Shown here piece by piece: positions 232 to 61,024 of a stretch of 64,000 bases of DNA (position 1 is the first letter of the stretch; every line of letters begins with the position of its first letter). The stretch lies in contig CAYZRY010000001.1 in NCBI GenBank assembly GCA_964481005.1, positions 6,446 through 70,445 of the forward strand, given 5' to 3'. Under the pieces are notes generated by a model. The model did no database searches and was not told the origin of the DNA. It saw only the letters and a program-made list of their open reading frames with translations. The translations under genes were made by a program, and so were the position numbers. This DNA is from an uncultured Muribaculaceae bacterium (GTDB lineage Bacteria > Bacillota_I > Bacilli_A > RF39 > UBA660).

Positions 232-762
232 ATGGTCAAGCTTCGTAAAATGCTCGGATCAGCGGATTCTCCGTACATTGTTTCATTGATGAAACTGATG
301 GAGACCCAAAGTAAAGAGACAGTTGCTAAATGGTGTTTAGATTACACCGAAGAAAATATTTTACCAATTTTTGAAAAGAGGTGTCCGAAAGATGAGCGAG
401 CGCGCCAAGCTATCGATGCCTCTAGGGATTGGTTTTTAGGTAAGAAAAAATTACCAGAAGTAAAAGATATTATTTTAAATAAGTGTCACCAAGCAGCAAG
501 AGAACTAGATAGTGATCCGGCAGCCCAGGCAGCAGCTAGAGCTTGCGGACAAGCGGCAGCATGTTTTCATACGCCAACTCATGCTTTGGGAATGGCTTTT
601 TATGGAGCGGCGGCCATTGCATATGATCAACATGGTCTTGAAGAATCGCCAGTTCTATATGATCGAATTGCCACAATTGAAGTCAGTAAAATGGAAGAAG
701 CCCTTCGTAAAATAGCTGTTCCAGATGAAGAAAACCCAGCAAAATTTAAATGGTTTTGCTAA
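232..762 (+). CDS. Hypothetical alpha-helical protein (176 aa), Ala/Gln-rich, noticeably GC-richer than its surroundings
   Basis: ORF in track. Segment ...AAQAAARACGQAAACFHTPTHALGMAFYGAAAIAY. Local GC about 40% against about 30% for the window. Confidence 0.55.
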   Translation: MVKLRKMLGSADSPYIVSLMKLMETQSKETVAKWCLDYTEENILPIFEKRCPKDERARQAIDASRDWFLGKKKLPEVKDIILNKCHQAARELDSDPAAQAAARACGQAAACFHTPTHALGMAFYGAAAIAYDQHGLEESPVLYDRIATIEVSKMEEALRKIAVPDEENPAKFKWFC

Positions 763-4334: not shown

Positions 4335-4382
4335 AGGAAAAAAATTATATATCGTCAATTATTACTTTAAGGAAGTGAATTG

Positions 4383-6449
4383 ATGCTTAGGAAATATCCG
4401 ACTGTCTTGCAGGAGGGAGCAAATGACTGTGGACCTTGTTGCTTGCTTATGATAATAAGGTCTTACGGTGGTGATTACTCACTTGAAAAACTGCGTGAAT
4501 TAACTAAAACAAATCTTGATGGAACAACAGCATTTCATTTGACATCGGCTGCCAATAGTTTAGGTTTTAGTGCTTGGACAGTAAAGGGAAGGATTAGTGA
4601 TTTAAAAAAGGAACTATTTCCGTGCATAGCTCATATCATAAATGACCAAGGATATTTACATTTCATTGTAATTAATCAAATCAAGGGAAAACACTTAATA
4701 GTTTCGGATCCAGCTATCGGTGTTAGAACAATGATGATCGAAGACTTTGAAAAGATAAGTACTGGTAATTTTATTTTGCTCAGTTTAGTTAAACATCTGC
4801 CTAAGATAAAAGAAAATAATTTTGTTAGTAATCAACTAAAAGATTTTATTTATAAGTACAGAAACTTATTCTTAAGTGTTTTAGTGATATCACTAATTTA
4901 TACTTCATTAAATATTTTTCTATCATATAGGCTTCAGCTATATATTGAAACTGTCATAAAGTTTTATTCTAAGAATAATCTTATCTTGATTAGTTTAATA
5001 GTGTTACTTGTATCGATAATAAAAATAATTAGTGATAGATTCAGATTTCAACTTATCAATTATCTTAAACATGAACTGGATGAAAAATTAATGATAGAAG
5101 CCTATGGGCAAATAATTAAGCTTCCTTATTTATACTATAAAAATAGAAGTAGTGGAGAAATAATTGCTCGCTTGCAAGACTTAGGTGAGATTAAAGAATC
5201 GATTAGTCGTATATTTGTTGGAGTATTGGTCGATTTACTTTTATCTGTTTTTGCTTTTGTAATGCTTAATAAAATTAGTTCAAAACTGACAGCAATAGTC
5301 TTAATCACAGCTATCATTTTAGTGTTAACAACTTTGATATTTAGACCACTTAGTAGTTATTATCTTAAAAGTAATAAAGAATTAAGTGCCAAATTAAACT
5401 CATATATGATTGAGTCAATTTCCAGTGTCGATACGGTCAAAGGTTTACACCTAGAAAGTTTGCTGGAAAATAACTTTTTCAAACAGTATAAAAAGCTCTT
5501 AAAAGAAAGCTATAAATTAAATAACTTGTATAGTTATGAGAATATGCTTAGAGAACTTGTTTATGATCTAGCTTTAGTTGTAATTATCTTTGTAGCAAGT
5601 CAGCTAATATTTAAAGGTTTATTAACTTTGCCTAAAATGATCACATATTTATCGTTATTGGTATATTTTTTAGAGCCGATTAAGAGTTTAATTGATATTA
5701 ACTTATCTGTTAAGGAATTAATGCTAACAAGCAGTAGACTCAATCATCTATTTGAAGTTAGTAAAGAAGAGTTAGATATTAAAAACAATTTGATAATTGA
5801 TAATTATGATATTGAGTTTAAGGATTTAAGTTATTCATATGACGGAAATAGAAATGTAATTGATAAGCTTAATTTAAAAATAAAAAGTGGTTCTAAAGTT
5901 TTTATTAGCGGAGAAAGTGGTAGTGGAAAAAGTACTTTGTTTAAACTCTTGATGGCTTATTTTAGTTACGAAGAAGGAAAAATATACATCGGTCAAAATG
6001 AAATTGCTAATTATGATTTAAGAGATCTCAGAGAAAATATTGTCTATGTCTCTCAAAGTGAGGTAATTTACAACGATACCCTATATAATAACGTGACACT
6101 GGGAAGAGTTGTGTCTTACGAAGAGTTTCTTAGCGTAGCAAAGATGACCGATACTTTAGATGTAGGTAAAGTTGCCGGGGCTAACTATAAAATCGAAGAA
6201 GCTGGTTTTAATTTAAGTGGGGGAGAGCGCCAGCGAATAATGTTAGCTAGAGCACTTTTGTCTAAGGCTAAAATATATATTTTTGATGAGAGCTTAAGTC
6301 AGTTAGATGTAGAAAGAGAAAGATTAATTTTAAAAAATATTTTTACCAATTACAAAGATTCAACTTTTATTGTCATTTCACATCGCAAAGTAAATGAAGA
6401 TTTATTTGATGAAAAGTATGTTTTGAAAGAGGGAAGATTACATGCTTGA
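4383..6449 (+). CDS. Bacteriocin/peptide ABC exporter with N-terminal C39 cysteine peptidase domain (processes double-glycine leaders)
   Basis: C39 motif QEGANDCGPCCLLMI (catalytic Cys) plus a downstream His region. TM domain. Walker A GESGSGKST, signature LSGGERQR, Walker B IYIFDES. RBS AGGAAG before ATG 4383. Confidence 0.9.
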   Translation: MLRKYPTVLQEGANDCGPCCLLMIIRSYGGDYSLEKLRELTKTNLDGTTAFHLTSAANSLGFSAWTVKGRISDLKKELFPCIAHIINDQGYLHFIVINQIKGKHLIVSDPAIGVRTMMIEDFEKISTGNFILLSLVKHLPKIKENNFVSNQLKDFIYKYRNLFLSVLVISLIYTSLNIFLSYRLQLYIETVIKFYSKNNLILISLIVLLVSIIKIISDRFRFQLINYLKHELDEKLMIEAYGQIIKLPYLYYKNRSSGEIIARLQDLGEIKESISRIFVGVLVDLLLSVFAFVMLNKISSKLTAIVLITAIILVLTTLIFRPLSSYYLKSNKELSAKLNSYMIESISSVDTVKGLHLESLLENNFFKQYKKLLKESYKLNNLYSYENMLRELVYDLALVVIIFVASQLIFKGLLTLPKMITYLSLLVYFLEPIKSLIDINLSVKELMLTSSRLNHLFEVSKEELDIKNNLIIDNYDIEFKDLSYSYDGNRNVIDKLNLKIKSGSKVFISGESGSGKSTLFKLLMAYFSYEEGKIYIGQNEIANYDLRDLRENIVYVSQSEVIYNDTLYNNVTLGRVVSYEEFLSVAKMTDTLDVGKVAGANYKIEEAGFNLSGGERQRIMLARALLSKAKIYIFDESLSQLDVERERLILKNIFTNYKDSTFIVISHRKVNEDLFDEKYVLKEGRLHA

Positions 6450-6855
6450 AATAATAGATTTTAAAGAAAGAATAAGCTGTAAAAAAATGTATTTAAAATA
6501 CATATTACTTGTATTTTTATTAGTTATGTCACTTTTTTATATAAATGAAAAATTTAAATATGATGATTATATTTTAGTAAATGGCGCATCATTTGGTGAA
6601 AAGAAAGTTGTAGCTATCATTCAAAGTAATAATTTGATTCTTTTTGAGAAGAATAATGAATTATATATTAAAAATGAAAAATTTGCTTACAGAATAAACA
6701 GTATCAAAAAAGATAAGATTATGATTGATGGTAATTATAACCAAGAAGTTATTATTGACTTAGATAAGCCAGTAAGTGATGAAGTATTTGAGCTCAAACT
6801 AATTACTTCATCAGAGCCATTTATAAATCATCTATTAAGAAAATTATGGAGGTAA
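6442..6855 (+). CDS. Small membrane-anchored protein (137 aa), possible minimal accessory or immunity factor of the exporter
   Basis: Start overlaps the ABC gene stop (ATGCTTGA). One N-terminal TM helix (YLKYILLVFLLVMSLFYI). No catalytic motif. Confidence 0.5.
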   Translation: MLEIIDFKERISCKKMYLKYILLVFLLVMSLFYINEKFKYDDYILVNGASFGEKKVVAIIQSNNLILFEKNNELYIKNEKFAYRINSIKKDKIMIDGNYNQEVIIDLDKPVSDEVFELKLITSSEPFINHLLRKLWR

Positions 6856-10725: not shown

Positions 10726-12957
10726 ATGGCAAGAAGAGGACGTAAGAAAAAATTTAAATTTGAGTACAGTTTCGAACTTTGGGCTGTCATTTTTATGTTG
10801 ATGTCAGCTTTAGGTATAGGACTTGGTAGTCCTGTTGGACTTCTTGGTAGAGTAGCCAAAGCAATTGCTGTATTCTTTTTTGGTTCTTGGAATTTACTAT
10901 TCATGTTACTATTTTTAAGTTTAGGAATATACATGATTATTAAAAGAGAAATGCCGAGAATATTTGATAAAAAATTAATTGGAATATATCTATTTATTAT
11001 TGGTGTTCTAATTTTATCACACAGTTTATACATTAAAAATGACTTTACTATTTCAACAGTATTATCTAATAGTTTTAATGATTTAAAGAGTATTATGACA
11101 AAGTTAGTCAGAGCTCATGATTATAATCTTATTGGTGGGGGAATGATTGGGGCACTATTTGCTGCTGGACTAAATGCTTTGGTCGATTATTCAGCTACTA
11201 AAATAATAGCAATAATTATTATTATAATTGGTTTATCAGTCTTCACTGGAGTTTCTATTTTAGAACTGATTCGAAGTGGTTTCTACAAAGGAAAAGAGCT
11301 CTTAGTTCGTGAAACTGATGGTGAAGAAAAAACCGTAATAAAACAAGCTGACCCAGGTGAAGAAGAAAGCGATGAACCTGTTAAAGTTCCAATTAAAAGT
11401 TTGGCTGAGCTAGAAGAGCTAACTGCAGTCAAAGAAGAAAAAGAAGCATTAAATGCTAGTCGTGAAGTAGAGCTTGTTGGCGATGAAAAAGAAACTAGTA
11501 AAGGTAATTACAATTATCAATTACCTCCGTTAACACTTCTGAATAATCCACAAGATAAGAATAAAAATGTTATCGATGTCGATAAATATTCTAAAATAAT
11601 CGAAGAAGTCTTAAGAGAGTTCGGTATCATTGGTAAAGTTGTGGCATATCACATCGGACCTAGTGTTACCCAGTATGAACTTGAGTTAAAAGCTGGAACT
11701 AAGCTTAGTAAACTAGTCAGTATTAATAAAGAAATATCGCTAGCTTTAGCTAAAAAAGATGTCCGTATCCAGGCCCCAATTCCCGGTAAGAGTACTGTCG
11801 GAATCGAAGTTGCTAACGATAAGATTTCACCGGTTTCATTAAAGGAAATTTTAACTGATGAACCACGTGATGCCAAAAGCAAGAAATTATTTGTTGCCTT
11901 AGGTAAAAACATTATGGGTGAATCACGCTTTACTGAAATTGATAAGACCCCGCATTTACTTGTTGCCGGAGCAACTGGTTCAGGAAAAAGTGTTTGTATC
12001 AACTCTATTATTGCATCAATTTTAATGAGATCAAAACCAGACGAAGTTAAACTGGTCATGGTCGATCCTAAGAAAGTTGAACTTAGTATGTACAACGGTA
12101 TTCCACATTTGTTAATGCCAGTTGTTACCGATCCAAGAAAAGCTAGTGTTGCTCTTCAAAAGATTGTCCAAGAGATGGAAAATAGATATGTTCTATTTAG
12201 TGATAAGAATGTTAAAAATATCAGTGGTTATAATGATTTAATCGACAAAGAAAATAAAAAACGCGGTCCAGATGATCAAATATCGAAAATGTATTACATT
12301 GTTGTCATTGTCGATGAGTTAGCAGACTTGATGCTTGTTGCAAGCCGTGAAGTTGAAGACTCAATTATGCGAATTACACAGATGGCTAGAGCAGCTGGTA
12401 TCCACTTGATTGTTGCTACTCAAAGACCTTCGACTGATGTCATTACAGGTCTAGTTAAGTCTAATATTCCTTCGCGTATATCATTTGCTGTTTCATCATC
12501 GATCGATTCACGTACTATCCTCGATATGGGTGGTGCTGAAAAACTTCTTGGTAAAGGAGATATGCTATATTTCCCAATGGGAGCTAGCAGTCCAGAGCGT
12601 GTTCAAGGAGCCTTTGTTTCTGATGAAGAACTGCAAAGTATAGTCAATCATACTGTTGCACAGCAGAAGGCTAAATACGATGAAAACTTTATGAATTTAA
12701 GTGTTGCTCAGGCCCAAGGAAATGCTGGTGGAGCAGTTTCGACAACCGAAGAAGAATACGATGATCCACTTTACAATGAAGCTCTAGATTTTGTTATACA
12801 AACACAAAAAGCTAGTGCCTCAGCTCTTCAACGAAGATTTAAAGTTGGTTATAACCGAGCAGCTAGAATTATCGATTTGCTCGAAGAAAGAGGAATTGTC
12901 GGACCATCTAGTGGTTCAAAACCTCGCGAAGTATTAGTAAAAGAAGACGACAATTAG
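10726..12957 (+). CDS. ftsK: DNA translocase FtsK/SpoIIIE
   Basis: N-terminal TM segments. Walker A GATGSGKS. C-terminal gamma winged-helix domain (ALDFVIQTQKASASALQRRFKVGYNRAARIIDLLEERGIV). Confidence 0.9.
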   Translation: MARRGRKKKFKFEYSFELWAVIFMLMSALGIGLGSPVGLLGRVAKAIAVFFFGSWNLLFMLLFLSLGIYMIIKREMPRIFDKKLIGIYLFIIGVLILSHSLYIKNDFTISTVLSNSFNDLKSIMTKLVRAHDYNLIGGGMIGALFAAGLNALVDYSATKIIAIIIIIIGLSVFTGVSILELIRSGFYKGKELLVRETDGEEKTVIKQADPGEEESDEPVKVPIKSLAELEELTAVKEEKEALNASREVELVGDEKETSKGNYNYQLPPLTLLNNPQDKNKNVIDVDKYSKIIEEVLREFGIIGKVVAYHIGPSVTQYELELKAGTKLSKLVSINKEISLALAKKDVRIQAPIPGKSTVGIEVANDKISPVSLKEILTDEPRDAKSKKLFVALGKNIMGESRFTEIDKTPHLLVAGATGSGKSVCINSIIASILMRSKPDEVKLVMVDPKKVELSMYNGIPHLLMPVVTDPRKASVALQKIVQEMENRYVLFSDKNVKNISGYNDLIDKENKKRGPDDQISKMYYIVVIVDELADLMLVASREVEDSIMRITQMARAAGIHLIVATQRPSTDVITGLVKSNIPSRISFAVSSSIDSRTILDMGGAEKLLGKGDMLYFPMGASSPERVQGAFVSDEELQSIVNHTVAQQKAKYDENFMNLSVAQAQGNAGGAVSTTEEEYDDPLYNEALDFVIQTQKASASALQRRFKVGYNRAARIIDLLEERGIVGPSSGSKPREVLVKEDDN

Positions 12958-30566: not shown

Positions 30567-31210
30567 TGATATCAAAAAGATTAAAATCCTTGGCTAACCA
30601 TGCCAAGGATTCTATGTTTATATTGGATGTCGGCTGTGATCATGGGCTGCTAAGTATTCATTTAGCCCAAGCAGGCAAAAAGTTGATTGCTTCAGATATT
30701 GCCAAAGAACCACTAGAAGTAGCTAGAAGAAATATCAAACGAGCAGGACTTGATAATATTCAAGTAGTTTTAGCTCCAGGCTTAAAAGCCATCGATGAAA
30801 AAGTTGATACAGTCATCATCGCTGGAATGGGTAATGCGACAATGCAAAATATTATCGAAGAAGATTATCATCTTCTAAAAAGTGTCAATAAATTGATTGT
30901 TTCACCACATACAGAAGTCGCAGACTTTCGCAAATATATAACCAATAAAGGTTTTTATATAACTGATGAAGAAGTAGTCTATGATAAAGGTAAATACTAT
31001 ACCATCATTGTTTTAGAAAAGGGCAGTCGCAGTTATAGTGAAAAAGAGTTATTTCTTGGGCCAGTACTGATGAAAGAAAAAACTAAAACTTATTTAGAAT
31101 ATTGTCAGCAAGAGTTACTAAATAAAAGAAAAATTTTAGATAAATACGATGCTAAAAATAAAGAGTTAATCGAAGAAGTAAAAAGACTTGAGGAATTAAT
31201 AAATTCCTAA
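30566..31210 (+). CDS. trmK: tRNA (adenine22-N1)-methyltransferase TrmK-like SAM-dependent methyltransferase
   Basis: ILDVGCDHGLLSIHLAQAG...ASDI SAM-binding fold. Conserved dnaG-sigA-yqfN synteny. Confidence 0.75.
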   Translation: MISKRLKSLANHAKDSMFILDVGCDHGLLSIHLAQAGKKLIASDIAKEPLEVARRNIKRAGLDNIQVVLAPGLKAIDEKVDTVIIAGMGNATMQNIIEEDYHLLKSVNKLIVSPHTEVADFRKYITNKGFYITDEEVVYDKGKYYTIIVLEKGSRSYSEKELFLGPVLMKEKTKTYLEYCQQELLNKRKILDKYDAKNKELIEEVKRLEELINS

Positions 31211-31220
31211 GTCTTTTTTT
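31191..31220 (+). terminator. Rho-independent terminator
   Basis: AGGAATT-aata-AATTCCT followed by aagtcTTTTTTT. Confidence 0.65.
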
Positions 31221-31264
31221 ATGTCAATGAATAGTAATTTTTAACTATTATTTTTTATAAAGGG

Positions 31265-31273
31265 TGGTATAAT
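31265..31273 (+). promoter_or_regulatory. Extended -10 (TGgTATAAT) upstream of the pilin-like gene
   Basis: TG-extended TATAAT 25 nt upstream of the start codon. Confidence 0.4.
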
Positions 31274-31297
31274 TATATATAATAGAGGTGGTTTAGT

Positions 31298-32980
31298 TTG
31301 AAGAAACAAGGTTTTACTTTAATTGAAGTAATTGGTGTAGTAGTAATCATTGGTTTAGTTCTTATGATTGTTTTTCCTACGCTTTCTAAACTTATGTTAA
31401 ATAATAATACTAAGAAGTTTGATAATTATTACATGATGATTGAAGAGGCATCTAAAGTATATGCCGGAACACTTAAAGATAAGATGGGACCAGCAACACA
31501 AAATGGTTGTGCTGAGTTTACCTTGACTGATTTAGTTAGTAGGGACTACATCAAAGAATATAAAGATAAGAGAACTACTTGTAGTATAACTTCGACTAAG
31601 ATAAGAGTTAAAAATACTAGAGGTAAGATTGAAACATTTTTTAAACTTAAATGTTCTGATCAAGTTCCTAGTACTAGCGATTATATTAAAGGAGTAGATG
31701 ATGTAGCTAACTGTATTGCTTACACTAAAAATGAAGCTAATACTTTGTATAATGCTGTCAAAGTAAATAGTGCTCAAACAACTAGAGATGTAAATGTAGT
31801 ATATATTACCAATGATCCAGTTAAGGCTTTAAATAAATACTTATACTATTCTGGTGGTCTTTGGCAAATTGTCAGCTATGACGAGTTGCAAGAAACAGTC
31901 AAGGTCTTAAGTCTAGATTACACTGCAGCTCTTCCGTTTAATGCTAAACAAAATAATAATTATGTTGGAAGTACTATTTCAAAATGGCTTGAAAATGTCT
32001 ATTTACCAACCTTAAAAAATCATGAAGAGTATCTGACAATCAGTAATTATGATACAACCCCTAGTGCAAACTTTGATTTACCGACTGCTACTAATCCAGC
32101 CAAAGTAGTCAAGTCAAAAATTGGACTATTAAGTGCTTATGAAGCTCGTAAGATTAAACATCCAACAGGAAGTGGAATACTAAATCGTTGGACTTTGAGT
32201 GAGGGAGCAGCCGGAACAAACGTAGCCTTTACTCAGGATAATATGAACTTATTTGATAAGCTATCTCACAGTTATGGAATGGTTATTCCTGTTATTACTT
32301 TTGCTGCTGATGTTGAATTGTTAAAGGGAACAGGAACACAAGCCGATCCATATATAATTGAACCAGATTACAAAGGGGAAAAAGGTCAAACTATCGATAG
32401 TAGACCAGCTGGAGAATATGTTTATCTTAATTATGGAGGAGCAAATGCAGCCTTTAGAATAATGGGTAAAGACGTCGATGGTAACGTCAGAGTTAATCGT
32501 TATACTGGAACTGCTATGAAATTTGATGAGACTACTTTTGATTTTTCAAGTAGTGATATACAGCAATATTTAAATACGACTGAATATAATAAATTCTCTG
32601 CCGCAGCTAAAACACTACTAGTCGATGGATATTTCTGTAATGACGTTATAAATGATACAATCATGAAAACTAACGATTCATTCTTTACAACAACTTGTAC
32701 TGATCCAGGTAAAGTTAAAATGTATAAAGTAGGACTTTTCAGAGTAGGGGAGCTTTATTCACAACAGGGACTTACTCAAAAAATATGGACCTTAAATCCT
32801 AATAATGCTTCGCCTGATCAATTTGGTTCAACTATCAATGTCATAAATGGTGACTATACTGTCACTCCAGAACTAGTCAACAATGTGTCTATTAGTTACA
32901 ATATCGTCGTAACTATCAATAAAGCCGCTTTAATTGATAGTGGTGAAGGTACTAAAACATCACCGTATGTTATAAAATAA
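31298..32980 (+). CDS. Large modular type IV prepilin-like protein (560 aa)
   Basis: Class III signal MKKQG|FTLIEVIGVVVIIGLVLMIV (Gly-1, Phe+1, Glu+5, hydrophobic helix), followed by about 520 aa of unrecognised beta-rich sequence. Initiates at TTG with GAGGTGG RBS. Confidence 0.7.
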   Translation: MKKQGFTLIEVIGVVVIIGLVLMIVFPTLSKLMLNNNTKKFDNYYMMIEEASKVYAGTLKDKMGPATQNGCAEFTLTDLVSRDYIKEYKDKRTTCSITSTKIRVKNTRGKIETFFKLKCSDQVPSTSDYIKGVDDVANCIAYTKNEANTLYNAVKVNSAQTTRDVNVVYITNDPVKALNKYLYYSGGLWQIVSYDELQETVKVLSLDYTAALPFNAKQNNNYVGSTISKWLENVYLPTLKNHEEYLTISNYDTTPSANFDLPTATNPAKVVKSKIGLLSAYEARKIKHPTGSGILNRWTLSEGAAGTNVAFTQDNMNLFDKLSHSYGMVIPVITFAADVELLKGTGTQADPYIIEPDYKGEKGQTIDSRPAGEYVYLNYGGANAAFRIMGKDVDGNVRVNRYTGTAMKFDETTFDFSSSDIQQYLNTTEYNKFSAAAKTLLVDGYFCNDVINDTIMKTNDSFFTTTCTDPGKVKMYKVGLFRVGELYSQQGLTQKIWTLNPNNASPDQFGSTINVINGDYTVTPELVNNVSISYNIVVTINKAALIDSGEGTKTSPYVIK

Positions 32981-32982
32981 CT

Positions 32983-33010
32983 TTACAAACAAGGCTTATT
33001 TGTATATAAT
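32983..33010 (+). promoter_or_regulatory. Sigma-A promoter for the T-box leader
   Basis: TTTACA, 16-nt spacer, TATAAT. Confidence 0.5.
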
Positions 33011-33019
33011 TACTCTAGA

Positions 33020-33216
33020 ACTTTGATCTTGAGGGGTCATGCAGTAATTTTAAAGAGACTGGGTGTTTGGTGTAAACCTAGAAATGAGAGCATGATTTGT
33101 AGCAAGGGAGTTGAAAGACTGAGCTTAGTAAGTTTTTCCGGTAATGCGTTATAGTAAAGAGAAGTAATTAAGGTGGTACCACGATCATTCGTCCTTTGGG
33201 ATGAATGATTTTTATT
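33020..33216 (+). promoter_or_regulatory. T-box riboswitch leader (Val-type by context) with intrinsic terminator
   Basis: Conserved T-box sequence AATTAAGGTGGTACCACG at 33166-33183. Terminator ATCATTCGTCC-tttg-GGATGAATGAT followed by TTTTATTT. AGAGA-containing stem-I region upstream. Confidence 0.7.
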
Positions 33217-47356: not shown

Positions 47357-48476
47357 TAACGACGTTTTAGAGCGTGAAAAACATCTCAGTAAATATGCTT
47401 GTAAAAGCCAGGACGTAATTAGACTTAAGGAAGAAAAGGAAGATATGCGTCCGGCTTTTTTTCATGATGCAGACAGGATAATTTATTCACTTTCTTACAG
47501 TCGATATATTGATAAGACTCAAGTCTTTTCATATGAACACAATGACCATGTCAGTCATCGTATGATCCATGTTCAGTTTGTCAGTAAAATAGCTAGAACA
47601 ATTGGAAGGATGTTATCACTTAATGAAGACTTGATCGAAGCTGCGGCTCTAGGACATGATCTTGGGCATACACCGCTTGGTCATCTAGGGGAAAAAGTTT
47701 TAAATAAGATTTCCCAAAAAGAATTAGGACAGAACTTTTTACATAATATTCAAAGTCTTAGAGTAATGATGGTTCTTGATAAAAATGGTGAGGGAAGTAA
47801 TATCTCGGTCCAGGTTATGGATGCTATTATGTGTCACAATGGTGAGATAATTGACAATATCTATAGACCAGTAAAAAAGACGAAAGAAGATTTTCTAAAA
47901 GAATATGAAGGAAGCTACTATAACAGTCAAATAGCTAAGACGCAGCACCCAATGACTCTCGAAGGTTGCGTGGTGCGCATTGCCGATGTTATCGGTTATA
48001 TTGGCAGAGATATCGAAGATGCTATTCAAGTTGGAATATTAAAGCGTGAAGATTTACCTAAACAAATAACCGATGTCCTAGGTGATACTAACAGTAAAAT
48101 AGTTAACACAATTGTTACCGATATCATTGAAAACAGTTACGGTAAAAACTATATTGCGATGAGTGAAAAAGTTTTTAAAGCCTTAGATGAGCTAAAGAAC
48201 TTTAATTATAAACACATCTATGAAAAAGCCAACAGCGCCGAAGATTTAGAAAAGTATGAAAAACAAATAACTTATCTATACTACAAATATCTAGAAGATT
48301 TAGAAAGTAAAAATTATGATAGTTTCATTTACAGAAACTTTGTCAAGCATATGAACGAAGACTATAAAAATAATAATCCAAATGCTAGAATTATCTTAGA
48401 TTTCATCTCGGGTATGACTGATGATTATTTGCTTACCCAATATGAGTATGAACAAAAGAGGGAAAATAAAAAGTAA
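47337..48476 (+). CDS. HD-domain dNTP triphosphohydrolase (dGTPase-like)
   Basis: HSLRVM... HD motifs (HRMIHVQFV, LGHDLGHTPLGH). Confidence 0.8.
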   Translation: MMIERISNDVLEREKHLSKYACKSQDVIRLKEEKEDMRPAFFHDADRIIYSLSYSRYIDKTQVFSYEHNDHVSHRMIHVQFVSKIARTIGRMLSLNEDLIEAAALGHDLGHTPLGHLGEKVLNKISQKELGQNFLHNIQSLRVMMVLDKNGEGSNISVQVMDAIMCHNGEIIDNIYRPVKKTKEDFLKEYEGSYYNSQIAKTQHPMTLEGCVVRIADVIGYIGRDIEDAIQVGILKREDLPKQITDVLGDTNSKIVNTIVTDIIENSYGKNYIAMSEKVFKALDELKNFNYKHIYEKANSAEDLEKYEKQITYLYYKYLEDLESKNYDSFIYRNFVKHMNEDYKNNNPNARIILDFISGMTDDYLLTQYEYEQKRENKK

Positions 48477-49095
48477 AAAAGGTTTTACATTAATTGAATT
48501 ACTTGCTGTTATTATAATTTTAGGATTGTTACTAGTCATAGCTGTGCCTGCTGTTACTAAATACATTGAAAAATCGAGAAAGAACTCTTACAAAGCAACT
48601 GTTTCAGCTTATGCTGGTGGTCTAATGAATGAGATCAGCAGTGGCAATCTGCCATCGATGACTGATGAAGATACAATCTATTACATTCCATTTAAGTGTA
48701 TTAATCTTGAAAAGGGTGGTACGACGATGTATGGAACTGGTGATTGGGACTTTGCCTATGTACTTATGACTATTACTAATGGTCAACGAAATTATTCGAT
48801 TTATTTGAAAGATAGCAAAGGTATGGGAATAGTTGGAATCGATGTCGATAAAATAAAACAAAGTGATATTTACAGCATCTGGTATAAGTCAACCGACTAT
48901 ATACCAGTTGATGGAAAAACTAAGATCAAATTAGTTGACGATGCTTGTAACTTTGCTGGAATGACTAAAATTGATAGTAGGGCTTTTGGCTACAATCAGA
49001 TAAATGATATATATATTCCAAATACAGTAACAAATATTAGTTCAGCAATACTTAATCAAAATGTTGGTAGTTCTAGAATACATATGCAAGGTTGA
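48448..49095 (+). CDS. Type IV prepilin-like protein with C-terminal BspA-type leucine-rich-repeat fragment (215 aa)
   Basis: Signal MNKRGKIKSKKG|FTLIELLAVIIILGLLLVIAVPAV (G-1, F+1, E+5). C-terminal FAGMTKIDSRAFGYNQINDIYIPNTVTNISSAIL resembles an LRR_5/BspA repeat. 5' end overlaps the upstream gene by 29 nt. Confidence 0.6.
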   Translation: MNKRGKIKSKKGFTLIELLAVIIILGLLLVIAVPAVTKYIEKSRKNSYKATVSAYAGGLMNEISSGNLPSMTDEDTIYYIPFKCINLEKGGTTMYGTGDWDFAYVLMTITNGQRNYSIYLKDSKGMGIVGIDVDKIKQSDIYSIWYKSTDYIPVDGKTKIKLVDDACNFAGMTKIDSRAFGYNQINDIYIPNTVTNISSAILNQNVGSSRIHMQG

Positions 49096-57160: not shown

Positions 57161-59269
57161 GTGAATAATAGTAGAGTTAAAATATTATTTTCACTTTTGG
57201 CGATAGCTTTTTTGATATTGCCTTTTTATCGTGTCAAAGCTTTGGAACTTTGTCCTAAAAGTTATGAATATCAGTTATGGGAACAACGCAGTGATAGGGA
57301 TAAGTTCATAGCTCCCAAGTACTGTATGGAAAAGCGCGCAGTCCAGGAAGTATCAAAATTCACTGCGGCTAGAGCAGATATTTTACCAAGTAGTTTTGAC
57401 CTTCGTAATGAAGGAGGACAAAACTATACAACCGCAGTCAAAAATCAAGGTTTAACTGGTCAGTGCTGGGCTTTTACCACAACATCAGTGCTCGAGTCTA
57501 AGATGAAAAAAAGTGGTGATAGTGCTATTACTTTTAGTCCAAGACATATAGAGTATGCAACTAGTTATCAATTTACTGATGGAATAAATCCGCTTGGTTA
57601 TAACCGAACTGTTGATCAGGGTGGAAACTTTTACTATAGTTCTAATTATTTAATTAAAAATATCGGACCTGTCAAAGAAACTGACATGCCATTTTCTAAT
57701 GATGTATCATTAATTCCTTTAAGTGCAATCGATAAAGCTAATGTCCTAGATATCAATGAAGTTACATTCTTAGATTCATCAAGTGGATGCTCTTTGGTAA
57801 GTAGTGATATGAAAAAGAAAATAATGGCTAATGGTGCCATTGGTTCTCTAATATATTATGACAGCGCATATTACGACAGTTTTAGAGCTTCTTACTTTTA
57901 CGATGGAAGTAATTACAGTAATCATGCTGTAACGATAATTGGCTGGGATGACAATTATGATAGAACAAGATTTAAAAATCTTCCAAGTGCTAACGGTGCT
58001 TGGCTTGTCCAAAATTCATATGGAACAGCTTGGGGAGATAATGGGTATTTTTATATCTCTTATGAAGACGATAGAGTTTGTTCAAGTCTTTTCTCAGTTG
58101 ATAGCTACGACAAAGATTTAGAGAGAAATAACTATCGCTCGGATGTTCTAGGAATGAATTCAGCAATCGGTTATACAAACACAGATAGTACTTATGCAGC
58201 TTATACTTTTAGTCGCAAAACAAGTGATAGAGAAAAACTAAGTGAAGTTACTTTTGCTACAAATATAGCGGGTACATATGCAATATATTTAATCGATGGT
58301 GAAGAGAAAAACGTTACTAGTTTAACTCCTGACTATGTTGGGACAAGCACTGGACCATCGTATAAGACAGTTAAATTTGACAATGTCTATATGACTGGTT
58401 CTAAATATACAGTTATTATAAAGTATAGCGGAGCAGTTGGTTCTTATCATGTTCCTATCTCGCTAAAGATTCCTGGTAGTTATAGTAATTTCACTGTAAA
58501 AACAGGTGAGGGATTTGTCTCACGTGATGGAATAACTTGGACTGACTTAGCCGAAGAAAATGCTGCGCTTGTAATCAGTGTAAGTAGTGATAACGCTGAC
58601 TTAAAACTAAGTAATTTCAGTCAAAGTATCATTGATAATAAAACAGTTATTAACCTAGATGCCAACTATATAAAAGCTCCGAACAGCTTAACTTATAAAT
58701 TATTAAATGAAGCCAAAGAAGAATTAAGTATTACTACAGCTAATACCTTAGTTGAAAATAGACTAGAGGATATAACAATTACAAGCAGTAATATTTTAGG
58801 AGCAGGTCAATATGATCTAGTTATCAATTATGATGGAAGAGAGCTTGTTTATCAGTTTGTCATAGGTGAGCTTAGTCCATATAATTACAATGATTCAAAT
58901 ATAGTAAGAAGTAATTTTGATTTAAATTTTTATGTTCCAGGAGTCGATATAGCTACATTGAAGCAAGTCATTGGTGATAAAATTTTAGTTAATCAAGATG
59001 GAACTAATATAACTAGTGGGATACTAACTAGCAAGATGACAGTAAATTATCTTAGTGATACATTTAAAGTAATTATCAAAGGTGACGTGACAAGTGATGG
59101 CTTTGTCAAAATAAATGATTTAGCTAAACTGTCTAATTATCTTGTCAATGGTAATGGTTTAACAGCTGAAGAAATAATAAGTGCTGATATAACTGGCGAT
59201 GCAGTTTTTAAAATAAATGATTTAGCTAAGATGTCTAAATACATAGTAGATGGAGGTAGTTTAAAATGA
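57161..59269 (+). CDS. Secreted papain-like (C1 family) cysteine peptidase with C-terminal tandem dockerin module (702 aa)
   Basis: Signal peptide. Catalytic Cys NQGLTGQCWAFTT, His SNHAVTIIGWDD, Asn/Trp NSYGTAWGDNGYFYI. C-terminal duplicated Ca-binding dockerin segments GDVTSDGFVKINDLAKLSNYLVNG and ADITGDAVFKINDLAKMSKYIVDG (20-nt identical DNA repeat). Confidence 0.8.
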   Translation: MNNSRVKILFSLLAIAFLILPFYRVKALELCPKSYEYQLWEQRSDRDKFIAPKYCMEKRAVQEVSKFTAARADILPSSFDLRNEGGQNYTTAVKNQGLTGQCWAFTTTSVLESKMKKSGDSAITFSPRHIEYATSYQFTDGINPLGYNRTVDQGGNFYYSSNYLIKNIGPVKETDMPFSNDVSLIPLSAIDKANVLDINEVTFLDSSSGCSLVSSDMKKKIMANGAIGSLIYYDSAYYDSFRASYFYDGSNYSNHAVTIIGWDDNYDRTRFKNLPSANGAWLVQNSYGTAWGDNGYFYISYEDDRVCSSLFSVDSYDKDLERNNYRSDVLGMNSAIGYTNTDSTYAAYTFSRKTSDREKLSEVTFATNIAGTYAIYLIDGEEKNVTSLTPDYVGTSTGPSYKTVKFDNVYMTGSKYTVIIKYSGAVGSYHVPISLKIPGSYSNFTVKTGEGFVSRDGITWTDLAEENAALVISVSSDNADLKLSNFSQSIIDNKTVINLDANYIKAPNSLTYKLLNEAKEELSITTANTLVENRLEDITITSSNILGAGQYDLVINYDGRELVYQFVIGELSPYNYNDSNIVRSNFDLNFYVPGVDIATLKQVIGDKILVNQDGTNITSGILTSKMTVNYLSDTFKVIIKGDVTSDGFVKINDLAKLSNYLVNGNGLTAEEIISADITGDAVFKINDLAKMSKYIVDGGSLK

Positions 59270-60810
59270 AAAAATATTTATTATTAATTATTCTTTTGAT
59301 TGTTCCTCTAAAAGTATCGGCTGCTAGTTCTAGTATTTCTTGTCCAGCATCGGCTACTATCGGTCAAAATGTTACTTGTAGTGTCAATGTTACTCACAGT
59401 GGTTTAACTGGTGTTAGCTTAAAGTTTTCCCTAACTGGTGCGAGCTTTGTATCGTGCTCACCAGCAGCTATCTTTAATGGTAGCAGACTCTGCTCAGCAA
59501 ATGGGGCAGCTCTAACGACAACGCAAACTACAAATGGTGGAACAGTTCTAACCTTTGTTGTCAAAGTAAATAGCGCATCTCAAATAGCGATCAATACAGT
59601 TGAGGTATCAGACAGTGCTTACAATAATTTTACTGCTAATAATAGTAGTGCTAGTATTAGAATAAAATCCACAGATAATGTTCTAAGTAGTATAACCGTC
59701 GGGAGCCAGGTTTATAACAGCCCAGCCCAGACTATTAACCTAAGCTTAAATGCAGCAAGTACAAATATTAGTGCTGTGGCACCAGCCGGAGCAAGAGTTA
59801 GTGGAACAGGTTATAAAGCTTTAAATTATGGACTTAATAAATTTGTTCTAACATCAACTAGTGAAAGCGGGTCACCTAGATATTACACAATCAATATCAC
59901 AAGACCTGACAATCGAAGCTCAAATAATAATTTGAAGACTTTGACTACGACTCCAGGCTCACTTAGTTTTAATTCGTCTACTTTAAAATATAAAGTCGAA
60001 GTAGCAAGTAGCGTAAGTAGTGTTAAAATAGCAGCTACTTTAGCAGACACTAAAGCTAAGTTTGTCAGTTATCCGCAGAGCCTAAATTTAAACTATGGAT
60101 CTAACTATGCTAATATTAAAGTTCAAGCTGAAAACGGGGCGGTTAAAACATACACTATCGAAGTAGTTCGCAAAGATGATCGAAGTAGTGACAATCTACT
60201 TAAAAGTTTAACAATCAAAGACTTTGATATAGATTTTAGTAGTGATAAGACTAGTTATGAAATGACTGTTCCAAATGAAGTTACTAAATTAGAATTAGAA
60301 CCAATAATTAATTCTGAAGTAGCTAAAATGAATATCACTAATCCAGATTTAACAGTTGGTCTAAACAAAGTAACAATTGTTGTTACTGCCGAAAATGGTA
60401 GTGCTAAAACCTATGAGATAAATGTTACAAGAAGCCAAAAGGGAGTTAAACTCTCCGATGATAATTATCTAAAATCACTTGAGGTATCAGGTTACCAAAT
60501 AGATTTTAAAAAAGATAAACTAAAATATGAGTTACTAATCAAACAAGACTACGATTTAAATATTAAAGCTACTACTCAAAGCTCAAAAGCTAAATATGAA
60601 ATAACGGGTAATAAGTCATTAAAAAATGGTAGCAGAATAAAAATAACAGTTCTATCTGAAAGTTCTAAAAAAAGAACATATGAAATACTTATCAAACAAA
60701 AGAGAGAACTTCCATCATCAGTCTTAATATCGATGGGTGTAGTAGCTGGTCTAATTCTAGCAATTGTACTTAATAAAATAATTGTAAAAGTCTTGAAAAA
60801 AGGCCAATAA
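59266..60810 (+). CDS. Membrane-anchored surface protein: putative cohesin-like N-terminal domain, four cadherin-like beta-sandwich (PF12733-like) repeats, C-terminal TM anchor (514 aa)
   Basis: ATGA overlap with the peptidase gene. Signal MKKYLLLIILLIVPLKVSA. About 130-aa beta domain (SISCPASATIGQNVTCSVNV...GVSLKFSLTGASFVSCSP...TVLTFVVKVNSASQIAINTVEVSD) with cohesin-like strand pattern. Four repeats ending (R/K)(Y/T)YTI(N/E)V(T/V)R and starting NNLK(T/S)L. C-terminal LISMGVVAGLILAIVLNKIIV followed by KVLKKGQ. Confidence 0.7.
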   Translation: MKKYLLLIILLIVPLKVSAASSSISCPASATIGQNVTCSVNVTHSGLTGVSLKFSLTGASFVSCSPAAIFNGSRLCSANGAALTTTQTTNGGTVLTFVVKVNSASQIAINTVEVSDSAYNNFTANNSSASIRIKSTDNVLSSITVGSQVYNSPAQTINLSLNAASTNISAVAPAGARVSGTGYKALNYGLNKFVLTSTSESGSPRYYTINITRPDNRSSNNNLKTLTTTPGSLSFNSSTLKYKVEVASSVSSVKIAATLADTKAKFVSYPQSLNLNYGSNYANIKVQAENGAVKTYTIEVVRKDDRSSDNLLKSLTIKDFDIDFSSDKTSYEMTVPNEVTKLELEPIINSEVAKMNITNPDLTVGLNKVTIVVTAENGSAKTYEINVTRSQKGVKLSDDNYLKSLEVSGYQIDFKKDKLKYELLIKQDYDLNIKATTQSSKAKYEITGNKSLKNGSRIKITVLSESSKKRTYEILIKQKRELPSSVLISMGVVAGLILAIVLNKIIVKVLKKGQ

Positions 60811-60844
60811 TGGTTTATTATATAGGTGTATTCAAACAAGAGGA

Positions 60845-61024
60845 GTAATCTAGTTGATACTTATAGAGAGAGTATGGTTGTTGTAAATACTCAGTTAAAC
60901 TAGGCGAAGACACTTGAATAAATTTGAAACGTGACATCGCGTTAAGATGAATAAGCATATGGAAATATGGAATTAAGGTGGTACCACGGGTTATGCTCGT
61001 CCTTTGGGTGACTACCTTTTTTGT
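60845..61024 (+). promoter_or_regulatory. T-box riboswitch leader upstream of hisS
   Basis: T-box sequence AATTAAGGTGGTACCACGG at 60971-60989. Candidate His specifier CAC at 60911-60913 in GAAGACACTTGAA. T-tract CTTTTTTG before the RBS AAGGAGG. Confidence 0.65.

Follow-up and report, generated by a model that had tools for sequence, protein, structure and literature searches.

A candidate modular type IV pilin displaying two tandem C-type-lectin-like DUF6273 modules in an uncultured lineage of the Bacilli

What does a large protein with the front end of a pilin do in a stretch of DNA where no gene for pilus assembly was detected? This question is raised by a gene at 31298..32980 (+ strand) of a 64,000-nucleotide stretch of contig CAYZRY010000001.1 (assembly GCA_964481005.1), hereafter the window, from a bacterium deposited as an uncultured member of the Muribaculaceae and placed by GTDB in Bacilli_A, RF39, UBA660. 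The initial annotation had described it as an orphan modular type IV pilin of 560 amino acids (aa) with its own promoter. The analysis reported here makes us highly confident that the product is a class III signal protein dependent on a prepilin peptidase. Taken as a whole chain from gene to adhesin, a modular minor type IV pilin showing two tandem C-type-lectin-like DUF6273 modules is on balance the probable reading, within which we infer cleavage at the G|F bond, polymerisation into a filament and a role in adhesion.

The signal itself was examined at the level of profiles, motif and conservation. The predicted product begins MKKQG|FTLIEVIGVVVIIGLVLMIVFP, and its class III (prepilin) leader, MKKQG (31298..31312, +), has a predicted cleavage site after Gly5. 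Both PF07963 (Pfam N_methyl), with 24.8 bits vs a cut-off of 21.2, and TIGR02532 (NCBIfam), with 21.5 bits vs 16.3, were matched above threshold. A six-frame scan of all 64 kb for a G-F-T-L-I-E type motif followed by a hydrophobic helix returned 2 sites only, this one and a second at 48421..49095, so the signal is not a chance match in AT-rich DNA (33% G+C). The junction MKKQG|FTLIEV leads into a pilin alpha1 helix (aa 6-57; 31313..31468, +), with a hydrophobic N-terminal part (alpha1N) and with Phe+1, Glu+5, Gly+14 and Pro+22. Among 46 full-length family members Glu+5 was invariant (46/46), and Phe+1 was found in 45, Pro+22 in 44 and Gly+14 in 36; at position -1, 36 members had Gly and 10 had Ala, and net leader charges ranged from +1 to +8. 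The 14 closest relatives share 30-68% full-length identity with the window protein. The textbook class III signal with Glu+5 that had been annotated at the start is borne out by both profiles and by the invariance of this glutamate.

Glu+5, Gly+14 and Pro+22 have roles in the packing of subunits within pilin filaments and in the partial melting of alpha1, and a plain membrane anchor can dispense with them; Gly+14 and Pro+22 are helix-breaking residues, canonical in type IVa and Com pilins. As far as the alignment can tell, the conservation of these hallmarks would be difficult to account for if there were no prepilin peptidase and no assembly through alpha1. When the family profile was compared with solved pilins (among them geopilin, PilA, MshA, Streptococcus sanguinis PilE1 and GspG), the match was limited to the first 30-50 residues.

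The AlphaFold2 model of the protein, built on 14 homologues, reached a mean predicted local distance difference test (pLDDT) score of 83.9 and a predicted template modelling (pTM) score of 0.71. It showed a helix at residues 8-56/57, a small sheet domain at 69-133, and two alpha/beta domains at about 150-350 and about 370-560. The head of the pilin module (aa 58-145; 31469..31732, +; pLDDT about 80-95) was modelled as a five-stranded sheet with strands at 69-74, 93-97, 102-107, 110-121 and 129-133, and of its cysteines Cys71, Cys95 and Cys139 are invariant in the family, while Cys119 is conserved in at least 90% of it. The model with its helix, small sheet and two globular domains is in agreement with the fusion of a pilin front end to large extra modules that had been proposed.

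The extra modules could be assigned. Module D1 (aa 146-356; 31733..32365, +) is the first DUF6273, or C-type-lectin-like, domain, with an isoelectric point (pI) of 5.6, and module D2 (aa 357-560; 32366..32977, +) is a second, diverged DUF6273-like domain with a pI of 5.0. Pfam matched DUF6273 (PF19789) in two stretches, with 29.4 bits vs a cut-off of 23.5. Since hhalign aligned residues 141-356 with residues 357-560 over 173 columns (probability 98.7%, E = 3.7e-16), the C-terminal 415 residues are a diverged tandem duplication; BLASTP of D1 against D2 gave 28% identity over 107 aa. Each copy is closed by a GxGTxxxPYxI motif, which occurs twice in the protein. The first, GTGTQADPYII (aa 344-354; 32327..32359, +), has G346 and P351 invariant and G344 in at least 90% of the family; the second, GEGTKTSPYVI (aa 549-559; 32942..32974, +), ends one residue short of the C-terminus and has G549, G551 and P556 in at least 90%. 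In D2, Cys447 is also invariant in the family and Cys467 at least 90% conserved. Here two statements of the initial annotation had to be revised. The roughly 520 aa that it left unassigned and called beta-rich contain, by Pfam, AlphaFold2 and hhalign, two alpha/beta DUF6273 domains in the C-terminal 415 residues; and of the G(T)GTxxxPY(I/V)I repeats that it placed near the C-terminus, two copies do exist, but one of them lies in mid-protein.

Compared with the PDB by Foldseek, the whole model gave a single significant match, 9qa6, from the immunoglobulin A (IgA) peptidase of Thomasclavelia ramosa (E = 9e-6, probability 1.0), and the non-significant matches included several C-type-lectin-domain proteins. 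This N-terminal domain of the IgA peptidase is the only solved DUF6273, with a C-type-lectin-like core that, according to its authors, resembles the C-terminal domain of Legionella Lcl (PMC12237041), and Lcl recognises sulphated glycosaminoglycans (PMC11162425). Among predicted viral structures, the best matches were gut-phage DUF6273 proteins, down to E = 9e-14.

The viral matches, together with the finding that the DUF6273 domains of phages (tentaclins) are receptor-binding modules and targets of hypermutation by diversity-generating retroelements (PMC10743442), would fit a receptor-binding protein of phage origin, or one diversified by a retroelement, that had been captured by the chromosome. 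However, the neighbours of the pilin gene are core housekeeping genes, its position is kept over deep divergence, and no phage genes lie nearby. A Pfam scan of every window open reading frame (ORF) of at least 90 aa, and of the partial aspS ORF at the 3' end, found no reverse transcriptase domain, and the window has no pair of template and variable repeats; retroelement diversification therefore does not apply here, and a retroelement target was rejected as a candidate. No repeat of the pilin gene was found elsewhere in the window except for a 35-nucleotide (nt) leader match to the second prepilin gene. A captured phage or retroelement protein is thus largely refuted, and we give it hardly any credence.

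The deep divergence became apparent from the relatives. A word-indexed search returned an identical protein (P0001) and 13 homologues, of which twelve have 537-582 aa and the other has 441 aa (76% query coverage). The exhaustive profile search of 1.8 billion cluster representatives returned 479 proteins at E<=1e-30, and the full architecture was present in at least 46 clusters at 50% identity. The metagenome-assembled genomes bearing orthologues were labelled Erysipelotrichaceae, Bacilli or Firmicutes, and one of the scaffolds was 663 kb long. The gene order polC-x-dnaG-sigA-trmK-[pilin gene]-HD-(serpin)-valS was kept in orthologue loci at 28-31% protein identity. In these syntenic loci, from which the relative with 68% identity (L010) was excluded, identity was 84-85% for SigA, 60-67% for ValS, 40-43% for TrmK, 33-37% for the HD protein and 28-31% for the pilin gene product. 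Because the gene has kept its place despite such low identity, it is old, vertically inherited and fast-evolving, and no recent insertion. Its fixed position in relatives shows, at the level of sequence, that it is a maintained gene of its lineage. Two of the relatives have a serpin gene between the HD gene and valS (L001, 12646..13956; L007, 12605..13885), which is absent from the window.

Larger prepilin-type genes were also seen in the relatives. In several of them one coding for 786-862 aa adjoins the orthologue or stands two genes from it (L004, L012). Among the relatives' housekeeping genes such large prepilin-type genes were found at 12591..14951 of L004 (786 aa), 11660..14248 of L012 (862 aa), 4406..6421 of L016 (671 aa, after mutL) and 324..3317 of L017 (997 aa). 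One of these lies directly 3' of the orthologue, and one family member is extended by Flg_new repeats. The lineages of these relatives appear to put class III signals on many big surface proteins.

The DUF6273 cargo was also found on other N-termini. The 160 best-scoring of the 479 profile-search proteins were classified by their N-terminus: 77 had a class III signal with Glu+5, 6 had a pilin-like N-terminus without Glu+5, 48 had a transmembrane segment and, after it, a SYAFF...I.xGxLxL motif that is conserved, and 29 had another N-terminus or were fragments. In all classified proteins the tandem DUF6273 unit (about 400 aa) was C-terminal. Its attachment to varied surface-targeting N-termini in hundreds of proteins fits a portable binding cargo, and the simplest reading is a binding cassette moved between display scaffolds.

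The SYAFF-type N-terminus includes a domain of about 150 aa and occurs among P0036-P0159, for example in P0076, P0082 and P0093 from other genomes. No NCBIfam model matched the SYAFF-type N-termini; Peptidase_M73 (camelysin/TasA) was matched only below the Pfam threshold, in 5 of 15 members, and a profile search of the PDB gave weak matches to archaeal pilins (6nav, 8tib; E = 0.007-0.6). These N-termini may resemble SipW/TasA signals, and they may be a third display scaffold for the tandem DUF6273 cargo. Carried further, tandem DUF6273 could be an exchangeable adhesin cassette on canonical pilins, on pilin-like N-termini without Glu+5 and on the SYAFF class, with the fixed constitutive pilin as the core attachment organelle of the lineage, which might borrow the competence machinery without a pilus operon of its own. 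This proposal is speculative, and we consider it rather unlikely in this full form.

How the gene would be expressed was read from its flanks. The coding sequence (31298..32980, +) runs from a TTG start to a TAA stop and specifies 560 aa (62 kDa). An in-frame stop codon lies four codons 5' of the TTG, so this is the sole possible start before the signal; TTG is used in L010 as well, and ATG in more distant relatives. At the end of trmK an intrinsic terminator (31180..31226, +), made up of a stem-loop at 31180-31218 and a following U-run, overlaps the trmK stop codon. Its hairpin, which includes the last 30 nt of trmK, had a folding energy of -17.1 kcal/mol (z = -4.35; 0 of 200 shuffles as stable) and is also kept in L010. 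This terminator insulates the pilin gene from the dnaG-sigA-trmK transcript.

Between the terminator and the gene, an extended -10 element, TGgTATAAT (31265..31273, +), was read directly from the sequence; it has no good -35, which extended -10 promoters usually lack. Of 6 aligned loci, 5 have TGnTATAAT at the same place 5' of the orthologue. A consensus promoter scanner returned as many sites as expected from shuffles and picked another, overlapping TATAAT at 31278-31283, and for this reason the promoter is assigned from the conservation of TGnTATAAT, with no weight given to the scanner. The extended -10 element is the putative promoter of the pilin gene. A Shine-Dalgarno site, AGAGGTGG (31284..31291, +), likewise read from the sequence, stands 6 nt before the TTG, and GGTGG-type Shine-Dalgarno sites are conserved among the relatives.

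On the 3' side, no terminator was found after the pilin gene stop codon (window 32981..33210). The promoter scanner gave a near-consensus promoter, TTTACA-17-TATAAT, at 32982-33010, followed by a T-box leader at 33014-33199 (E = 3e-19; its 88.2 bits fall slightly short of the Rfam gathering score of 93) with a T-box terminator at 33183-33210. Because the pilin gene has no terminator after its stop, any read-through from it would end in the T-box or be gated by it. Next after the T-box come an HD-domain gene and valS, the former overlapping the start of the latter. These results confirm the TTG-started reading frame of 560 aa given in the initial annotation, and they support a promoter of its own with a TG-extended -10, its use being predicted from the element and the upstream terminator. 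The placement between trmK and the valS T-box was correct, with the HD gene preceding valS as an addition.

Several observations weigh against a filament-borne adhesin. The Pfam scan of the 64-kb window detected no T2SSE ATPase, T2SSF platform protein or A24 prepilin peptidase, and no PilB/ComGA, PilC/ComGB or PilD/ComC was found within 10 kb of the orthologues examined. The equivalog scores of NCBIfam stayed below their cut-offs (25.5 vs 75 for ComGC, 27.5 vs 88.85 for GspG), as did those of ComGE (15 vs 49) and ComGF (13.1 vs 80); the ComGC- and GspG-type matches were confined to the N-terminus common to pilins, that of ComGC to residues 4-56. Judged by these scores, the protein is outside every named pilin equivalog. 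Foldseek with the isolated pilin module found no pilin in the PDB and nothing significant, which we do not take as a negative result. The constitutive-looking sigma-A promoter is unlike what would be expected of a competence-regulated Com pilin, and the presence of tandem DUF6273 on non-pilin N-termini means that a filament is not required for its function. Finally, the solved DUF6273 is without the canonical calcium/carbohydrate loop and without an assigned function (PMC12237041).

A wider scan of metagenomes with the family alignment found 54 loci, nearly all of them generic pilins that matched residues 1-40 to 1-170 only. Two of the 54 were near T2SSE-like ATPases, but these are unrelated to the lineage of the pilin gene. 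Pilin genes located away from their machinery are common. The absence of pilus assembly genes from the 64 kb, as initially annotated, agrees with the Pfam scans. The description of the gene as an isolated orphan holds in part: it stands alone, with no machinery genes in the window, but in a fixed syntenic position and with a second prepilin gene 15 kb away.

That second prepilin gene (48421..49095, +; N_methyl E = 3.9e-7) codes for 224 aa as listed, with 48442 or 48448 as the likely true start; the listed start overlaps the gene upstream. Its product reads KKGFTLIELLAVIIILG..., with the leader ...KSKKG|FTLIELLAVIIILG, and at the DNA level this leader shows 86% identity over 35 nt to its counterpart in the main gene. 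The gene is flanked by an HD/HD_assoc phosphohydrolase gene and greA. The C-terminus of its product (AFGYNQINDIYIPNTVTNISSAIL) presumably resembles a single BspA-type leucine-rich repeat.

Part of this evidence would also fit a surface protein that has a class III signal and is never polymerised. In such a case a cleavable signal and anchor, or a very short pseudopilus stub, would hold the lectin-like domains at the cell surface, for which archaeal sugar-binding proteins with class III signals offer a parallel. The lack of assembly genes near the pilin gene here and in the relatives examined is consistent with it, as are the constitutive-looking promoter, the same cargo on other membrane-anchoring N-termini, and the presence of several large prepilin-type proteins (224, 786-862 and 671 aa) encoded here and there between housekeeping genes. 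However, for simple anchoring there would be no need of Glu+5 in 46/46, Gly+14 in 36/46 and Pro+22 in 44/46 family members, and the pilin head with four conserved cysteines is kept as well. Its cleavage would still need a prepilin peptidase, an enzyme that in bacteria accompanies a filament machine. We regard a non-polymerised surface protein as a possible but less than likely explanation.

If the modular minor pilin is assembled into a filament, a machine would be encoded elsewhere in the genome. In the genomes surveyed, 88.7% of Bacilli and 6 of 14 Erysipelotrichia had a Com system (PMC7212644), and the Erysipelotrichales pass on their comG operons vertically (PMC12786226). The Com system would be the most likely source of a prepilin peptidase in the lineage and also its likeliest machine, a dedicated type IVa pilus being equally possible.

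The prevalence of Com, more frequent in Bacilli than any other type IV filament (PMC7212644), and its vertical inheritance in Erysipelotrichales (PMC12786226) also bear on another function, that of a Com-pilus minor pilin that helps to capture DNA, with Thermus ComZ, also a large modular pilin, as a parallel; the first 53 residues are indeed ComGC-like (25.5 bits). Since the cargo domains are acidic (pI 5.6 and 5.0), which is unfavourable to DNA binding, a DNA receptor is unlikely. Moreover, the fold is lectin-like and no known DNA-binding fold, all Com pilin equivalogs score far below cut-off, and the gene is outside any comG operon. No competence-type element was seen by eye in the upstream alignment of about 140 nt, in which no specific motif search was run. 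Taken together, these points make DNA capture very improbable.

For the modular minor pilin, the following sequence of events can be proposed. The gene would be transcribed on its own from the sigma-A extended -10 promoter 3' of the trmK terminator and translated from its TTG behind a strong Shine-Dalgarno site. The product would be inserted into the membrane with its basic leader MKKQG in the cytoplasm, and a PilD/ComC-type prepilin peptidase encoded elsewhere would cut after Gly5 and methylate Phe6, as the conservation of the motif suggests. By analogy with S. sanguinis PilB and PilC, alpha1N with Glu+5, Gly+14 and Pro+22 would let a type IV filament machine, either a Com-type system or a type IVa pilus, extract the subunit and build it into a filament. 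Because a cargo of about 45 kDa is attached, the subunit would be a minor pilin of low abundance, most probably located at the tip. There the acidic lectin-like modules may, from their fold, recognise a ligand, be it glycan or protein, on mucus, on the host, on plant fibre or on another microbe, and the filament would thereby act as an adhesin.

This scheme was compared with known systems. The concept of modular pilins was set out by Raynaud et al., who counted more than 1,200 proteins in 264 architectures (PMC8179133), and modular pilins with a lectin or von Willebrand factor A (vWA) module are established adhesins (PMC8179133, PMC9934059). With N_methyl and two DUF6273, the window protein falls under the definition of a modular pilin (PMC8179133); DUF6273 is also found in peptidases and phage proteins. 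The founding modular pilin, S. sanguinis PilB, likewise has a short linker between a pilin module and an adhesive cargo (PMC8179133), but it has one vWA module with a metal-ion-dependent adhesion site (MIDAS) where the window protein has two lectin-like modules. PilB has been modelled as a rare, tip-located subunit (PMC8179133). S. sanguinis PilC shares a class III signal and a small pilin module fused to a bulky module of carbohydrate-binding type, and both hosts are monoderm members of the Bacillota; together with the minor pilin PilA, PilC makes up a complex that binds glycans (PMC9934059). PilC differs in having a concanavalin A (ConA)-like lectin module instead of tandem C-type-lectin-like DUF6273 (PMC9934059, PMC8179133), and the window gene is outside any pil operon and known from sequence alone.

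ComGC and other Com pilins have a similar leader and alpha1N (25.5 bits, residues 4-56; PMC7212644), but ComG pilins are small and encoded in the comG operon, whereas the window protein, scoring below the cut-off of 75, has 560 aa and stands alone. CofB of enterotoxigenic Escherichia coli, predicted at the filament tip (PMC8179133), and Thermus ComZ are large minor pilins too, with extra C-terminal domains proposed for ligand interaction, but their hosts are diderm, their cargo folds are other ones and their genes lie inside pilus loci. The domain of the T. ramosa IgA peptidase (9qa6) and the phage tentaclins belong to the same Pfam family, with a C-type-lectin-like core and decorations (PMC12237041, PMC12402451, PMC10743442), and like the window protein they come from gut Bacillota or their phages and are surface-exposed. 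They differ in their setting, having a Sec signal and a sortase anchor or being parts of phage tails, whereas here the domain is duplicated on a pilin. The N-terminal domain of the IgA peptidase is dispensable for catalysis, and its function cannot be transferred directly to the window protein.

Housekeeping genes that follow one another on the + strand make up the window, together with genes for a few surface proteins. The housekeeping genes are ftsA, ftsZ, ftsK, sepF, divIVA, dnaE, polC, dnaG, sigA, trmK, valS, fmt, lspA, ruvX, mltG, greA, topA, polA, fpg, truB, hisS and aspS. A second T-box leader (60831..61007; 95.9 bits, above the gathering score) is located 5' of hisS-aspS. Among the surface proteins, the one encoded at 57161..59269 is a papain-family protease that also has a lectin-like domain and weakly matches a type I dockerin; the next, at 59266..60810, has a Sec signal, cadherin-like repeats and a membrane anchor at its C-terminus. 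Proteins with dockerins point to a surface assembly of cohesin-dockerin type in this organism of gut or rumen. The left end of the window codes for an Imm5-like immunity protein (232..762) and a C39-peptidase ATP-binding cassette (ABC) exporter followed by a small membrane-protein ORF (4380..6855), which look like a set for export of, and immunity to, a bacteriocin or toxin.

In our search of the literature (DUF6273; pilins with C-type lectins), no description of a pilin paired with C-type-lectin-like DUF6273 was found, and DUF6273 is not among the frequent architectures named in the text of the modular-pilin survey (PMC8179133). Such proteins are already tagged automatically in databases with both Pfam domains. 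The window protein is a new example of the known modular-pilin design; it is no new kind of system and overturns no concept. To our knowledge, only a handful of modular pilins have been studied so far, all of them from cultured pathogens or commensals. The family described here comes from abundant, uncultured Bacilli of gut and rumen and is a widespread, unstudied candidate adhesin, whose practical value is that of a testable target with defined domain boundaries. If these proteins are borne on filaments, they would give DUF6273 its first functional context and would be candidate colonisation factors of uncultured gut and rumen Bacilli.

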